Assembly: GCA_031414595.1 (NCBI GenBank)
Contig: JANNVX010000116.1
Coordinates: 1 to 13,302, forward strand
Direction of reading: 5' to 3'
Origin: Deinococcales bacterium
GTDB lineage: Bacteria; Deinococcota; Deinococci; Deinococcales; JAAFIG01
DNA length: 13,302 nt
In this document: positions 1,165 to 6,930 of the stretch, piece after piece
Numbering within the stretch: position 1 is the first letter of the stretch
How the letters are laid out: each line of letters starts with the position of its first letter
The notes under the pieces: model-generated
Databases searched by the model: none
Told to the model about the DNA's origin: nothing
What the model saw: only the letters and a program-made list of their open reading frames with translations
Program-made: the position numbers and the translations under genes

Positions 1165-3711
1165 CTAAACCTTAGCCGCCGCTCGAGAAGCCTTCTTGCG
1201 GTTGTCCTGCCAGTCCTTAAAGAAGACTGCCATTGGCGCAACAATGTAAATACTCGAGTACGTTCCAACGATAATGCCAATCACCAAAATAAAACTAAAG
1301 TCACGCAGCACCGGACCACCCAGAATTAAAAGTGCAACCAAAGGCAGCATCGTAGCAATGCTGGTCATCAGGGTTCTCGAGAGCGTCTGGTTGATGCTGG
1401 TGTTGACAATCGCGGCGTATGGTTGTCCACGCATGACTTTTAGGTTCTCGCGGATACGGTCTGAAACAATGATGCTGTCGTTTAAGCTGTAACCAATCAG
1501 GGTCAGGACAGCCGCCACCGTGGTAATCGTAAATTCACGCCCCAAGAGGGCATACAACCCAAAACAGATAAAAACATCGTGTGCCACGGCAAAAATACTA
1601 CCAACACCAAGTACCCAGTCAAAGCGCACTGCCACATAAATCATGGTTAAACCAAGTGCGACCAGCACCGCAAGAATCGTCTTGGTGGTCAGTTCGTTAC
1701 CAACGGCTGCACCAACGGTTTCTACAGTGTCTACTTTGGCATTCTGGATTTTACTAATCGCATCTGAAATCACTTTGACTTCGTTTTTGCCGCCCGTTGC
1801 ACCGTTATCTAAAGTACGGGTACGCACTGTGAAATCCTTTAAGGCTTCGCCCGGAGTATTGCTTTCGACCACCACAATCCCGCCTTCGGTTACGCCCTCG
1901 AGTCCGCTACCGCCAACCGCAAGCCGCATTTGCTCGGAGGTGACAGTCAGTGGTGCTTTAATCAGAAGGCTTGTTCCAGCCGTGAAATCTACCCCAAAAA
2001 TAAAGCCTTTAAGAAGCATTGCCACCAAACCAAGCATTGCAAGAGCAACACTGGCAGTGGTGATGTATTTACTTAAGGACATAAAGTCAAATTTAGGCGT
2101 GGCAAACCAGTCACGCGCCTTAAACTTAAAGCGTTGTGCCATCAACTCGAGCAACCACTTGCTAAAAAACAGGTTAGAGAATGTACTGGCAATAATACCA
2201 ACTGCCAGCGTGACTGCAAAGCCTTTGACTGGTCCGGTGGCATAGTTATAAAGCGCCGCAGCCGAGATTAAATGCGAGAAATTAACATCAAAAATCGTCC
2301 AGAAGCTATTGCCAAACCCACCTTTAATCGCGGATTTTAAGGATAGCCCATCTCGTATTTCTTCTTTGATGCGCTCAAAACTAATCACGTTTCCGTCCAC
2401 CGCACTACCAATCGTTAGCACCAAACCAGCGATACCGGGCAAGGTCAGCACCGCACCAAGCCCAGCCATCATCCCGAAAATCGCTAACCCCGAAAACAAC
2501 AAGCCCAGAGCCGCCACTGTCCCAAAGAACAAACCGTAATAGGCATAGACCAGTACAAAAATTGCTGCCACACCAATTAAAGCCGCCGTTAAACCCTGAC
2601 GAATTGCATCCGCACCAAGGGTTGGTCCAATCGCACGGGTTTCAACGATATTAACGGGGATACGCAGCGCACCAGAACGCAGCACTAAGGAAAGGTCGTT
2701 GGCTTCCTCGAGCGAGAAATTACCTGTAATCTGACCACTCGCGCCAATCCGTTGATTGATACTTGGAGCGCTTTGCACAACACCGTCAAGGACAATCGCA
2801 AAGCGTTTACCGACATTTTTTCCAGTCACATCTGAAAAAACTGAAGCGCCAGACGGCGTAAGTTCAAAAGAAACGGTTGGTTGACCAAATTGGTCAAATT
2901 GGGTGGCGGCTCGAGCAATCGCTTCACCTGTTAAAAGGGCTGGCTCGAGGTCTGTGGGTAATAAATCTGCATCGCTTTTACCCTGAGCCTCTGGTTTTAA
3001 GAGCTTAAACTCGAGCTTGGCGGTTTTACCAATCAAGCTAATCGCACGGGTTTGGTCGGCTTGCGATAATCCCGGTAACTCAACCACAATCCGTTTTGTC
3101 CCCTGAATTTGCACCAAAGGCTCTGCCACACCAGTTTGATTGACACGGTTTTCAATCACATTACGAACTTGGTTTAAGTCTTCGGTAGTAAAGCCAGAAA
3201 CTTTACTGGTGTCCGCTTCGAGCAGCACCCGCAAACCACCACGTAAATCTAAACCCAACTCGAGCATTTCTGGGGCTTCTGCCACATACTCTACTTTGGC
3301 ATCCTTTAACTTGGCTTTTAATGGATTGACAATCGCTTTCCAAGTGGCTGTCGGCAGTGGTGTTTTAGCGTTGGCATTGACCACACTAAACGAAGTCCCG
3401 TTTGGTTCGACTTTGACCGATTCAATACTGGTAATCGCTCCAGTTTCGCCAAGCAACTTGGTTAAAGCGGCTGCCGTAATCGGTGTTTTAGGAGTTATTG
3501 ATAACGATTCTGTACGCGGCGCAAATGGTTTCCATAAGGCAAAAATGCTGCCTAGTACAATTGCCAGCATCACCAGACCTGTGACCAAATGGGTAGACCA
3601 AAAACTTTCTTGTGGCAAGTTCTTCTTATTGCGATTGTTGTTTTTCTCGCTCCGTTCACGGGCTTCTCGAGCCAGATTTTGAGCGCTGGAACTGCGGTTT
3701 TTTAGGGTCAT
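1165..3711 (-). CDS. secDF: Fused protein translocase subunit SecDF
   Basis: SecD motifs LGLDLRGG, RIVVELPG, IGPTLG, AVDGNVISFERIKEE. SecF motifs GVDFTAG, HDV, GYSLNDSIIVSDRIRE, TLSRT. Many TM segments. SD AAAGGA upstream of the ATG. Confidence 0.97.
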   Translation of the reverse strand: MTLKNRSSSAQNLAREARERSEKNNNRNKKNLPQESFWSTHLVTGLVMLAIVLGSIFALWKPFAPRTESLSITPKTPITAAALTKLLGETGAITSIESVKVEPNGTSFSVVNANAKTPLPTATWKAIVNPLKAKLKDAKVEYVAEAPEMLELGLDLRGGLRVLLEADTSKVSGFTTEDLNQVRNVIENRVNQTGVAEPLVQIQGTKRIVVELPGLSQADQTRAISLIGKTAKLEFKLLKPEAQGKSDADLLPTDLEPALLTGEAIARAATQFDQFGQPTVSFELTPSGASVFSDVTGKNVGKRFAIVLDGVVQSAPSINQRIGASGQITGNFSLEEANDLSLVLRSGALRIPVNIVETRAIGPTLGADAIRQGLTAALIGVAAIFVLVYAYYGLFFGTVAALGLLFSGLAIFGMMAGLGAVLTLPGIAGLVLTIGSAVDGNVISFERIKEEIRDGLSLKSAIKGGFGNSFWTIFDVNFSHLISAAALYNYATGPVKGFAVTLAVGIIASTFSNLFFSKWLLELMAQRFKFKARDWFATPKFDFMSLSKYITTASVALAMLGLVAMLLKGFIFGVDFTAGTSLLIKAPLTVTSEQMRLAVGGSGLEGVTEGGIVVVESNTPGEALKDFTVRTRTLDNGATGGKNEVKVISDAISKIQNAKVDTVETVGAAVGNELTTKTILAVLVALGLTMIYVAVRFDWVLGVGSIFAVAHDVFICFGLYALLGREFTITTVAAVLTLIGYSLNDSIIVSDRIRENLKVMRGQPYAAIVNTSINQTLSRTLMTSIATMLPLVALLILGGPVLRDFSFILVIGIIVGTYSSIYIVAPMAVFFKDWQDNRKKASRAAAKV

Positions 3712-3730
3712 AAGTTACATCCTTTAATGG

Positions 3731-3898
3731 CTACTAGCTGTTAGTAATTAGCTTCTAGCTTGTGGGGTTTTGTATAAGTTGCTTGCCTTGAAAGGAACAA
3801 AGTATAGGGCAACACGGGTTCGCCCTGCTCAGCAGTGGTTCAAAGTGATTTATGCTGATGTGCTTAATAGCTAGAAACTAGAAGCTATCAGCTAGTAG
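3731..3898. repeat. Inverted pair of degenerate 7-bp tandem repeats forming a long stem between the uORF stop and the secDF RBS
   Basis: CTACTAGCTG (3731-3740) pairs with CAGCTAGTAG (3889-3898). TAGCTTCTAG (3749-3758) pairs with CTAGAAGCTA (3878-3887). Both arms have period 7 (right arm tagctag/aaactag/aagctat/cagctag). Confidence 0.8.
3806..3828. repeat. Degenerate REP-like palindrome in the loop of the secDF leader stem
   Basis: AGGGCAACACGGGTTCGCCCTGC, similar to AGGGCGGACACGGGGGTCCGCCCCTAC at 13225-13251. Confidence 0.55.
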
Positions 3899-3902
3899 TT
3901 AA

Positions 3903-4220
3903 CTATTCGTTCCATCTCGAGAAACGCGCCAAAGTATCGGTTTGGAACGCTTCGGGGGTGGTGCTTAAAAAACGTGAGACCAGCAAAAATACTGGTGTCT
4001 CGAGGTATGCCGTGATGGTTGGAGCAAGACCTGTTTCTCGGGTCGTGTTTTGGACTTGTGTGACTGTACGAAGGTTCTCTGAAACCGTTTGTTGGTCTTG
4101 GGCTGGGCTTGAAAGGCTCGAGAGATTGTTTTTATTGGGTCGCGGTGCAGCAAACATCCCAAATGCCCAAGGTTGTAGGGCAAGGATAACAGCGAGAACT
4201 CGAGCCAGAAGGATTTGCAT
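3903..4220 (-). CDS. Small secreted or membrane-targeted uORF of secDF (105 aa); candidate translation-arrest/monitoring peptide
   Basis: From ATG 4220: MQILLARVLAVILALQPWAFG (signal-like hydrophobic N-terminus), a polar S/T/Q-rich linker, and C-terminus ...DTLARFSRWNE*. Same strand as secDF and 191 nt upstream of it. Extended -10 TGaTACAAT at 4240-4232. Confidence 0.65.
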   Translation of the reverse strand: MQILLARVLAVILALQPWAFGMFAAPRPNKNNLSSLSSPAQDQQTVSENLRTVTQVQNTTRETGLAPTITAYLETPVFLLVSRFLSTTPEAFQTDTLARFSRWNE

Positions 4221-4231
4221 AAAGCCTGCGG

Positions 4232-4240
4232 ATTGTATCA
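4232..4240 (-). promoter_or_regulatory. Extended -10 promoter element for the uORF-secDF transcript
   Basis: Minus strand TG-A-TACAAT, 11 nt upstream of ATG 4220. Confidence 0.55.
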
Positions 4241-4290
4241 GGTCTTGGGCTGCTTGGCGAATTTTACGGTTAATCCCATGTATTGTGGAG

Positions 4291-4296
4291 TACAAT
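4291..4296 (+). promoter_or_regulatory. -10 element of a leaderless transcript (class-V aminotransferase)
   Basis: TACAAT then 5 nt (aaatc) then ATG 4302. Confidence 0.6.
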
Positions 4297-4301
4297 AAAT
4301 C

Positions 4302-5903
4302 ATGGACATCACCACGGATTGGATTCGTGACAACTTAATTGGCGCAAACTCGATCATCAAGACCCCTTTTGGTCAGAGGCGTTTAACCTATGCCGATTAC
4401 ATTGCATCGGGGCGAGGTTTAACTTTTGTTGAACAAACCCTACAAAATTGTGTTTTGCCATTTTACGCCAATACCCACACCGAGGATAGCCTCACAGGTT
4501 CACGCACCACCCATTTTGCCCATGAAGCGGGCGAGTACATCAAAGCCCAACTCAACGCCCCGCAATACAAAATTGTCTTTTGTGGTTCGGGCAGCACCGC
4601 CGCGATTAAACGCATCCAAGAAATTCTGGGTTTAGCTGCACCTAGTCAGCTTAAAAAACGCCTGCTCGAGATTATGCCGCCCGACGAGCGCCCCGTGGTT
4701 TTTGTCGGTCCTTATGAGCATCACAGCAACGAGGTCTCTTGGCGCGAAAGCCTTGCCGAAGTGGTCGAGATTCCGCTTTGTCCAAAAGGTTTAATAGATT
4801 TAGATGCGCTTCGGGACGCACTCAAAGACCCTCGTTTTGCAGGTCGTCCTAAAATCGGTTCGTTTAGTGCCGCCAGCAATGTCACAGGTTTAATTTCAGA
4901 CACACGCAGTATTGCCAGATTGCTCCATGCCCAAGGCGCATATGCTTTCTTTGACTTTGCCGCCAGTGCGCCTTATGTTAAAATTGATATGCGTCCTGAT
5001 AAACCCGATGGGTACGATGCTGTTTTTATCAGCCCACACAAAATGATTGGTGGAATTGGCAGCCCCGGCATTCTGGTGTTTAATCCAAGTTTGTATCAAC
5101 TGTCCACGCCAAGCACGGCTGGCGGCGGCACAGTTACCTATGTCTCGAGCAGTGACCATGACTTTACCGATGACATTGAAGCCAGAGAAGATGCTGGCAC
5201 ACCCGCGATTCTGCAAAAAATGCGAGCCGCCTTTGGATTTTGGGTCAAAGCCCAAATTGGCACAGAGCAAATCGAAAAGAACGAAAAAAACTACATCAAA
5301 ACTGCCATTGCCCGTCTGCGCCAACACCCGAACCTCGAGATACTGGGCAACCTCGAGATGCCACGCCTTGCGGTGCTGTCATTTTTGATTCGCAGTGGCT
5401 CGAGTTACTTGCATCCACGCTTTGTGGTTAAGCTCCTGAACGACCTTTTTGGCATTCAATCTAGGGGCGGTTGTGCTTGTGCGGGTCCTTATGGGCATCG
5501 GCTGCTTGACATTGATACCGCGACCTCAGATGCCTACCGCGCCAGTGTTGGGGCAGGATTTGAAGGGATTAAACCCGGTTGGACACGGCTTAACTTTAAT
5601 TACTTCATAGACCAAACCGAATACAATTTTTTACTCGAGGCAATTGAATTTATTGCCACTTACGGCGAACGCTTTGTAACGCTTTATGATTTTAATTGGC
5701 AGACTGGTGCTTGGACACATAAACAAGACTCGAGCCAAGACGTTTCACTGTTTGATTTTGTACCAGCCACACTCGAGACCAGCCCAGCCAATTACGCCGC
5801 GTACCTTAAAGAAGCCCAAGCCATTGCGGATTCGCTCGAGAATCCAGCCGACCGTGAAATTCCAAATGGTGTGCCGACAGAACTGGTGTTCTTTAGGCAT
5901 TAG
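4302..5903 (+). CDS. Aminotransferase class V / cysteine-desulfurase-like PLP-dependent enzyme
   Basis: YADYIASGR, YANTHTE, GPYEHHSN, AASNVTG, FFDFAASAPY, PLP-lysine motif SPHKMIGG, and RGGCACAGPYGH. Confidence 0.9.
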   Translation: MDITTDWIRDNLIGANSIIKTPFGQRRLTYADYIASGRGLTFVEQTLQNCVLPFYANTHTEDSLTGSRTTHFAHEAGEYIKAQLNAPQYKIVFCGSGSTAAIKRIQEILGLAAPSQLKKRLLEIMPPDERPVVFVGPYEHHSNEVSWRESLAEVVEIPLCPKGLIDLDALRDALKDPRFAGRPKIGSFSAASNVTGLISDTRSIARLLHAQGAYAFFDFAASAPYVKIDMRPDKPDGYDAVFISPHKMIGGIGSPGILVFNPSLYQLSTPSTAGGGTVTYVSSSDHDFTDDIEAREDAGTPAILQKMRAAFGFWVKAQIGTEQIEKNEKNYIKTAIARLRQHPNLEILGNLEMPRLAVLSFLIRSGSSYLHPRFVVKLLNDLFGIQSRGGCACAGPYGHRLLDIDTATSDAYRASVGAGFEGIKPGWTRLNFNYFIDQTEYNFLLEAIEFIATYGERFVTLYDFNWQTGAWTHKQDSSQDVSLFDFVPATLETSPANYAAYLKEAQAIADSLENPADREIPNGVPTELVFFRH

Positions 5904-5906
5904 AAT
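5901..5906 (+). promoter_or_regulatory. -10 element of a leaderless transcript (P-II-like gene), overlapping the upstream stop codon
   Basis: TAGAAT then 6 nt then ATG 5913. No SD. Confidence 0.55.
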
Positions 5907-5912
5907 ACCCTT

Positions 5913-6221
5913 ATGCAAACCACTCACCTAAAACGAGTCACGATTATTGCCGAGGCACTGCTCGAGAAAGCCTTGCTGCGCGATATTAAATCTCTTGGCG
6001 CAACTGGCTACACGATCACCACGGCACGCGGCGAAGGCTCACGCGGGGTTCGAGCCTCGGATTGGGAAGGTGGCAACATCAAACTCGAGACATTGGTGTC
6101 TGAAAGCACCGCCCATAAAATTTTAGGGCAAATCTCGAGTAGTTATTTCGAGCATCACGCGGTTATTGCCTACTTAGAAAGTGTTGAAGTGGTACGCGGT
6201 GAAAAATACCTTGGAAAATAG
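5913..6221 (+). CDS. P-II-like signalling protein (SbtB-like/non-canonical P-II)
   Basis: 102 aa with KRVTIIAE, GATGYTITTARGEGSRG and NIKLETLV, ending in VEVVRGEKY. The T-loop is short and lacks the GlnB YRG..Y signature. Confidence 0.8.
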   Translation: MQTTHLKRVTIIAEALLEKALLRDIKSLGATGYTITTARGEGSRGVRASDWEGGNIKLETLVSESTAHKILGQISSSYFEHHAVIAYLESVEVVRGEKYLGK

Positions 6222-6232: not shown

Positions 6233-6493
6233 ATGACCATTCATATAGAAGCTGATGGGACATTGAAATTACCCGCGTCTATTCTCGAGCAATTGGGGTC
6301 GAACGAAGTGGATGTGCGTCTCGAGGGAAGGGTAGTGCATCTCGAGGCAGCCCGACCTAAACGCATTTTTGAACTCGAGACCCAAGAAGAACGCAAAGCA
6401 GCTTTTGAAGCGTGGGCAAGCCGAGTGGTTCAACCAACAGGCGTTTCGCTCCCTGAAGATTGGGCGACAATCCGTGATGGGATTTACGACTAA
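6233..6493 (+). CDS. vapB: VapB-type antitoxin (AbrB/MazE-like N-terminus)
   Basis: N-terminal IHIEADGTLKLPASILEQLG looks like a swapped hairpin. C-terminus ends RDGIYD. TAATG overlap with the PIN toxin gene. Confidence 0.75.
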   Translation: MTIHIEADGTLKLPASILEQLGSNEVDVRLEGRVVHLEAARPKRIFELETQEERKAAFEAWASRVVQPTGVSLPEDWATIRDGIYD

Positions 6494-6930
6494 TGGATTT
6501 TTTAGCCGATACCAACATTATTTCTCGTTTTGTCAATCGTGATGATTTACTGCACGGGGTTGTCTTCAAGGCAATTCGAGAATTATCTATGCAAAAAAAT
6601 CGAATTGTGATTGTGCCTCAAGTCTTGTATGAATTCTGGGCAATTGCTACTCGTCCCACTGCTGCTAATGGCTTGGGTTGGTCGGTTGAACGCACCCGAG
6701 CCGAAATAGATGATTTACTGACTCAATTTACTTTACTTGCAGACGATTCACAAGTTTTTAATTATTGGCTCGAGTTGGTCACTAAGTATCAAGTCAGTGG
6801 CAAACCGAGCCATGATGCACGCTTAGTGGCGGCGATGCAAGTTCATGGTTTAACCAATTTACTGACCCTAAACACCGACGATTTTAAGCGCTTCTCGAGC
6901 ATCAATGTGTTTCATCCCAGTCAATTCTAA
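6493..6930 (+). CDS. vapC: PIN-domain toxin VapC
   Basis: FLADTNII, QVLYEFW, HDARLVAAM and LLTLNTDDF carry the conserved PIN acidic residues. Confidence 0.92.
   Translation: MDFLADTNIISRFVNRDDLLHGVVFKAIRELSMQKNRIVIVPQVLYEFWAIATRPTAANGLGWSVERTRAEIDDLLTQFTLLADDSQVFNYWLELVTKYQVSGKPSHDARLVAAMQVHGLTNLLTLNTDDFKRFSSINVFHPSQF

Follow-up and report, generated by a model that had tools for sequence, protein, structure and literature searches.

What does the small open reading frame in front of secDF encode, and could its translation govern the gene that follows it? The stretch of DNA that we analysed, a window of 13,302 nt (43–49% G+C) from a Deinococcales bacterium, carries on its minus strand a fused secDF gene (848 aa, positions 1165..3711), identified by its Pfam matches to SecD_SecF_C (3.9e-77), SecDF_P1_head and SecD_1st. 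Directly upstream of secDF and co-oriented with it, as described in the initial annotation, runs an open frame of 105 codons (here called the uORF; 3903..4220, minus strand) that begins with ATG at 4220, ends with a TAG stop at 3905-3903, has the N- and C-termini quoted earlier, and is conserved at the protein level. Export-monitoring arrest peptides are known from a growing, patchy list of bacteria, and with each new motif another manner of jamming the ribosome has come to light. The initial annotation had taken the uORF for a candidate of this kind.

The frame stays open beyond ATG 4220, up to a TTG at 4295 that would give a product of 130 aa. Homologues start at an aligned Met, a promoter-like site occupies 4260-4232, and one relative has a stop codon just five codons upstream of the aligned Met. 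Together these features point to ATG 4220, rather than TTG 4295, as the start of the uORF.

A small ORF that accompanies secDF

Searching with the single uORF protein yielded six homologues at 58–66% identity, and as a query against 41 related genomes it matched 12 (6/7 in the genus, 11/18 in the family). Synteny was far more revealing. We collected 40 secDF loci from 40 of the 41 genomes; one lies at a contig end, which leaves 39 with upstream DNA. In 36 of these 39 loci, secDF is preceded on the same strand by an ORF of 94–134 aa, with a basic-then-hydrophobic N-terminus and a conserved tail, that ends 64–209 nt upstream of secDF. The conservation that the arrest-peptide proposal called for is thus borne out among relatives. 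The common design comprises a hydrophobic N-terminus, a variable linker of 60–100 aa and a conserved C-terminus at the stop codon.

Three of the 39 loci have no intact uORF. One (L032, in genome G014) keeps the N-terminal half and has a disrupted C-terminal half, and it is the sole disrupted locus of the 39. At the other two (L044 in G039 and L052 in G023), infB and secDF are immediate neighbours and the small ORF is missing; IF-2 domains were confirmed for L044. More generally, the gene upstream of the small ORF varies by lineage, being infB in several and a divergently oriented aminotransferase gene in the window. Since this neighbour changes from lineage to lineage, the constant partner of the small ORF is secDF.

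Profile searches extended this picture. Further loci came from profile matches in one Thermus-like genus, where a secDF-like start lies 87–137 nt past the tail in 20/20 cases. Across 251 genomes of the phylum at least 84 were positive, a lower bound because the profile missed four genomes whose ORF was found by inspection. When 1.84 billion representatives were searched exhaustively with a profile, only 25 clusters came up at E ≤ 0.001. The database members, all annotated as hypothetical, come from Thermus sp., Thermus amyloliquefaciens, Truepera radiovictrix and a Marinithermus locus tag. The uORF belongs to an order-wide Deinococcus-Thermus family that precedes secDF and is apparently undescribed.

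Two minor observations concern these loci and their surroundings. One family member (P0028) sits on an 8.4-kb metagenomic contig in a bin labelled as a cyanobacterium (Pleurocapsa sp.), which may be a binning error. SecDF of the uncultured family, in the window (3598-3711, minus strand) and at L019-L035, has a basic cytoplasmic N-terminal extension of 21–41 residues before the first membrane helix; Thermus-like SecDF and that of most other relatives (L037-L048) have only 3–5 residues there, with 27 in L047.

The peptide and its C-terminal tail

The uORF product divides into three parts. Residues 1–21 (4158..4220, minus strand) form a signal-peptide-like segment, with one Arg, a hydrophobic run, the sequence P-W-A-F-G, and small residues at −3 and −1. 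Its best 10-residue Kyte-Doolittle mean is 2.79, and every one of the 26 full-length ORFs of the secDF loci (26/26) has a hydrophobic 10-residue stretch (mean 2.1–3.3) behind a basic residue. Sequence, hydropathy and an AlphaFold2 helix predicted over residues 2–20 agree on the signal-like N-terminus that had been noted before. Residues 22–96 (3933..4157, minus strand) make up a variable, polar linker, apart from a conserved start that reads A-P-R-P...S-L-S-S-P within family f1. AlphaFold2, given an 18-row alignment, returned pTM 0.18 and mean pLDDT 60 and placed helices only at 2–20 and 96–101; with no structure predicted in mid-peptide, the earlier description of this linker as unstructured holds. 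Residues 97–105 (3906..3932, minus strand) are the candidate arrest motif, a C-terminal segment conserved in tail alignments and flush with the stop codon.

No existing family accounts for the product. Pfam and NCBIfam models gave no match to family members below E = 0.02, and the ESM Atlas offered only "hypothetical protein" clusters, with recognition under the usual mark. Predicting a complex of SecDF with the uORF product scored 0.00, which gives no answer either way. We rejected the identification as YajC, as the uORF has no PF02699 match; a weak YajC-like ORF (23.2 bits against a cut-off of 28.2) lies away from secDF on another contig of the same genome (G000 C105:5931-6068, L049). The idea that the Gly-Gly end found in relatives is ubiquitin-like or Pup-like was dropped in view of the signal-like N-terminus and the absence of a fold.

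In the window the tail reads ...L-A-R-F-S-R-W-N-E-stop. The main type, represented by 54 unique sequences, has as its last 14 residues roughly [RK]-[LR]-[FY]-L-x-[YLF]-[SGA]-R-L-Q-L-[DE]-G-G-stop. D or E at −3, G at −2, and G or A at −1 occur in 54/54; R at −7 (43/54), L at −6 (47/54) and Q at −5 (45/54) are nearly as constant. A shorter tail, [LQ]-A-R-[FY]-[SGE]-[RK]-W-x-[EL]-stop, is found in 14 unique sequences in or near the window's genus; for the genus alone it can be summed up as A-R-[FY]-[SG]-R-W-x-x-stop. Two intermediate tails, ...Y-S-R-W-Q-L-E-G-A and ...G-R-W-Q-L-E-G, join the two types. Read through these intermediates, the window's tail is evidently derived by shortening: the [FY]-x-R-[WL] core is still there, and the D/E-G-G end is gone. 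The C-terminal motif suggested earlier, L-x-x-F/L-x-R-W/L, came close to this shared core. Because the window's tail derives from a wider motif, the unit of interest is the family rather than the window's single ORF.

Two properties of the tail bear on how it might act. First, it is flush with the stop codon in every case, with all three stops in use (19 TAG, 9 TAA and 8 TGA among 36 uORFs). Such a constant junction of motif and stop would suit a stall at termination or close to it. Second, the tail codons differ freely between lineages, so the constraint falls on the peptide. Five members of the window's genus have their last 8 codons identical in DNA, and a synonymous-site test that counts the degenerate codons of invariant residues gives 7/7 there vs 12/27 elsewhere (Fisher p = 0.009), a figure to be read with the kinship of the five genomes and with the placement of two of the codons inside a CTCGAG word under genome-wide pressure. 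CTCGAG was considered as a pairing element specific to the uORF and rejected, the word being hyper-abundant throughout the genome. This palindrome occurs 67 times in the 13.3-kb window against 1.67 expected, and with 23,235 copies in the whole genome (G000, 4.49 Mb), 24 times expectation, it is the commonest hexamer. A literature search on CTCGAG as a highly iterated palindrome returned nothing relevant.

The remainder of the peptide is also constrained. Within the genus, dN/dS is 0.21–0.38 for the whole peptide, and omega in the linker is 0.20–0.48. By these ratios, the peptide is under purifying selection, its linker is not neutral, and the frame would appear to be translated. Members resembling family f1 keep a length of 102–113 aa although their identity is ~25%. 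Four metagenomic DNA runs contain a related strain that keeps both ends of the uORF and has a replaced middle.

Selection of this kind raises an alternative that we regard as unlikely, if by no means negligible. The uORF could encode a small protein, secreted or tethered to the membrane, whose action follows translation; its tail would serve as a short linear motif that a partner recognizes, for instance SecDF, a protease or some component of the envelope, and its co-transcription with secDF would reflect shared function, not control by stalling. Purifying selection on the whole peptide, linker included, speaks for such a protein, as do the most invariant residues of family f1 (P17, W18, P26, L36 and P39), which lie near the N-terminus, just after the signal segment, and not in the tail. 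However, the product has no predicted fold, belongs to no known family and is not YajC. Across the order the tail is all that is conserved, and between lineages the linker drifts in composition from polar to proline-rich.

Promoter-like site, spacer and RNA structure

A promoter-like site, recognized by consensus matching, lies just upstream of the uORF (4232..4260, minus strand). It consists of a −35 element TCGCCA, a 17-nt spacer and a TG-extended −10 element TACAAT, and the −10 word, together with its flank, is kept in 6/6 genus loci that have upstream sequence. Such a site would set the start of the transcript ~5 nt before ATG 4220. A spacer of 191 nt (3712..3902, minus strand) separates the stop of the uORF from the ATG of secDF; near its end lies the secDF Shine-Dalgarno sequence AAAGGA (3720..3725, minus strand), 8 nt before the ATG.

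In the classical model of arrest-peptide control, the stall opens a stem that hides a downstream Shine-Dalgarno site, and downstream expression rises. The initial annotation had drawn attention to a long stem that starts at the uORF stop. The inverted repeat is indeed there: two 30-nt arms (3869..3898 and 3731..3760, minus strand), 80% complementary, begin 5 nt past the stop, end 5 nt before the secDF Shine-Dalgarno site, take in most of the spacer between them and dominate its fold (z = −4.0 vs shuffles). What did not stand is any general role for it, the stem being specific to one lineage. A sister genome whose peptide is 93% identical has a 112-nt spacer without the arms, and the arms are likewise absent from a related strain in other metagenomes. 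Each arm proves to be a copy of a short, CTAGCT-rich dispersed repeat, which is found in partial form (28–50 nt, 80–93% identity) at ~11 other places in the genome, for example G000 C14:110998-111054 and C88:159081-159105. We therefore rejected the long stem as a conserved regulatory switch, given that it has no counterpart in sister genomes and that its arms recur elsewhere. A ribosome on the stop codon would cover just the first bases of this stem.

Nor did we find a general means of masking the secDF ribosome-binding site. In the window, the region from the Shine-Dalgarno site to the AUG has a predicted unpaired probability of 0.65 when the RNA is free and 0.66 once the model places a ribosome at the stop codon, so the site is predicted to be open whether or not a ribosome stands there. 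Averaged over 27 loci, the corresponding values are 0.45 and 0.47. At five loci the Shine-Dalgarno sequence does pair with sequence near the stop. Across 47 loci, duplexes that the Shine-Dalgarno region could form with the stop-proximal region (the last 45 nt of the uORF and the first 20 nt after the stop) were no stronger than those of dinucleotide shuffles, with a mean z of −0.17; z fell below −1.64 in 6/47 and was +0.84 in the window. Shine-Dalgarno duplexes were somewhat stronger with the stop-proximal region than with an upstream segment of the same ORF (21/27 loci). For 20 Thermus-like spacers, consensus folding yields one structure only, a local hairpin inside the end of the uORF, with compensatory change in 0/11 of its pairs. 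Unpaired probabilities, duplex z values and consensus structure thus leave Shine-Dalgarno sequestration by stop-proximal sequence unsupported as a general rule.

In columns 6–45 of the Thermus-like alignment (A5, 20 loci), the codons for L-Y-L-L-Y and those for L-[DE]-G-G-stop can pair with each other, stop codon included. The adjacent Leu codons of L-Y-L-L-Y are CTG in 0/39 cases; CTG is common in the nearby R-L-Q-L codons.

These RNA results also fit an exported protein that acts after its synthesis: secDF has a strong, predicted-open Shine-Dalgarno site of its own, 64–209 nt downstream of the small ORF, and neither folding nor duplex tests found a structure that masks it.

No terminator had been thought to lie before secDF, a statement that we correct here, as a consensus scan, by pattern match, picks out a G+C-rich, terminator-like hairpin with a weak T tract (3806..3826, minus strand). 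The spacer hairpin might act as an attenuator. This brings up a second alternative, in which the uORF is a leader without any sequence-specific arrest: translating ribosomes would govern whether the spacer hairpin or a termination factor is accessible, or would protect the mRNA, and would so set the transcription or translation of secDF. We consider such a leader improbable. The terminator-like hairpin, the recurrence of G+C-rich hairpins in the spacers of relatives and the presence of a promoter-like site upstream of the uORF only are all in its favor. Yet the relatives' hairpins share no conserved sequence, and most have no T tract. Moreover, a plain leader has no need of a signal-like N-terminus, a linker of conserved length or a tail conserved at the peptide level.

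That the uORF is a chance open frame, never expressed, is scarcely credible in view of its conservation as a protein among genomes that differ greatly in base composition, a dN/dS well below 1 and its fixed position before secDF in 36/39 loci, with the frame disrupted in just 1/39 (L032).

Relation to known arrest peptides and proposed mechanism

It is useful to set the family beside the arrest peptides already described. As given in the main text of PMC10987492, the screen for such peptides looked for a secDF uORF without annotation whose product begins with a signal or transmembrane segment, ends in a conserved C-terminus and has a spacer of >30 aa in between. All four in-silico features are present in our family (4/4). 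What defines such peptides is that the nascent chain stalls the ribosome that makes it, an ability that the family may share. An unannotated ORF, co-oriented and upstream of a gene of the set secA, secDF or yidC, is found at 36/39 relatives' loci and matches no family. Hydropathy reveals the N-terminal segment in 26/26 full-length ORFs, with a helix predicted at 2–20; the tail alignments supply the conserved C-terminus; and the spacer measures ~84 residues in the window, in a family whose ORFs run to 94–134 aa. The classes named in the papers on such peptides, so far as their main texts go, are SecM, MifM, VemP, ApcA, ApdA, ApdP, 19 RQH groups, uA_LPPP, uC_KYxIW and LudP.

In overall arrangement, the closest of these is VemP of Vibrio, upstream of secD2/F2. 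Like the uORF, VemP is a small ORF directly before secDF; it opens with a Sec signal at the N-terminus, continues in a long spacer and closes with a conserved stretch at the C-terminus, and the product that it regulates is SecDF, as proposed for the uORF. We found no sequence similarity between the two, and no Pfam or NCBIfam match for the uORF. The VemP stall comes while the chain is still being elongated, a few codons short of the stop, and it exposes the ribosome-binding site of secD2. The uORF, by contrast, has its motif right against the stop codon and no predicted masking structure.

At the C-terminus there is a likeness to uDF_DGMK-stop and LudP of Bacillota (PMC10987492, main text; 10.64898/2026.10.26.761930, preprint), which are also uORFs of secDF with a motif at the very C-terminus. 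Their motifs contain Asp-Gly, and the wider Deinococcota family ends in D/E-G-G-stop. For uDF_DGMK-stop, the arrest is described as involving the stop codon. However, register and residues differ, D-G-M-K-stop vs D/E-G-G-stop, and the peptides come from another phylum and share no overall similarity; the window's tail, unlike either, has no D-G at all. We therefore rejected membership in this class as its sources define it, by a D-G-M/E-K end: the window ends in R-W-N-E and the family in D/E-G-G or D/E-G-A. The proline-dependent "-stop" peptides of PMC10987492 also have a conserved motif that ends at the stop codon, but in that account they need a C-terminal proline, and the uORF has no proline in its last 14 residues. 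For these peptides the same paper shows arrest at termination in vitro. It reports termination-dependent arrest for motifs, different from that of the uORF, that abut a stop codon.

The RAPP-like family (SecM, ApcA, ApdA, ApdP and the RQH groups) shares with the uORF its overall design and type of gene neighbourhood. It differs in the arrest sequence, as the uORF has nothing resembling R-A-P-P near its C-terminus. Neither the window's tail nor any of the 68 unique tails contains an R/Q/H-A/G-P-P/G motif; the tail is non-RAPP, as first supposed, and membership in this class was rejected. We propose that the family would work most like VemP and the "-stop" classes, and that by motif it falls in none of the named classes. 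The main texts of PMC10987492, PMC7897499, PMC12992588 and the LudP preprint make no mention of Deinococcota or Thermus, and a literature search for arrest peptides or secDF monitoring substrates in these groups returned nothing relevant. Judged by those main texts, the family appears undescribed; the supplementary tables may list such clusters.

On balance, we lean toward reading the uORF as a Sec-monitoring nascent peptide of the VemP or SecM kind, a candidate member of what is probably a new class. Its operation can be pictured as follows. The promoter-like site just upstream would give a nearly leaderless transcript of uORF and secDF. The signal-like N-terminus would bring the nascent chain to the Sec translocon, and the linker of ~84 residues would span the ribosomal tunnel and reach the membrane. 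At that stage the last 9–14 residues, abutting the stop codon, would occupy the tunnel and the peptidyl-transferase centre, where they might slow the last steps of elongation or termination. Pulling by active translocation, assisted by SecDF, would end the pause. Low export capacity would then mean a longer pause and a higher output of secDF.

More tentatively, and with slightly less than even confidence, we extend this reading to the whole order: a Deinococcus-Thermus arrest-peptide family may share a motif of roughly [FY]-L-x-[YLF]-[SGA]-R-[LW]-Q-L-[DE]-G-G-stop that brings the ribosome to a halt at termination or immediately before it, with the window's genus as a natural truncation mutant (...R-W-x-x-stop). 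As the D/E-G-G end is lost in that genus, a stall that needs D/E-G-G cannot apply there.

If monitoring by this family is confirmed, it may be relevant in several respects. First, it would extend export feedback of the arrest-peptide kind to another phylum. Second, it would add a motif without proline to the list of arrest peptides. Third, it would supply a native arrest peptide for the Thermus ribosome, the one most used in structural work, and make structural study possible on cognate ribosomes. Finally, the window's short tail and the full motif offer a ready comparison that would, if stalling holds, map the residues responsible.

The window contains two other gene arrangements, both on the plus strand. 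At 4302-6221, a gene of the class-V aminotransferase fold (533 aa) has a gene for a P-II nitrogen regulator of 102 aa directly behind it. Beyond it, at 6233-6930, an 86-aa ORF that belongs to no family is followed by an overlapping ORF for a 145-aa PIN-domain protein, a pair that resembles the layout of VapBC-type toxin-antitoxin systems.
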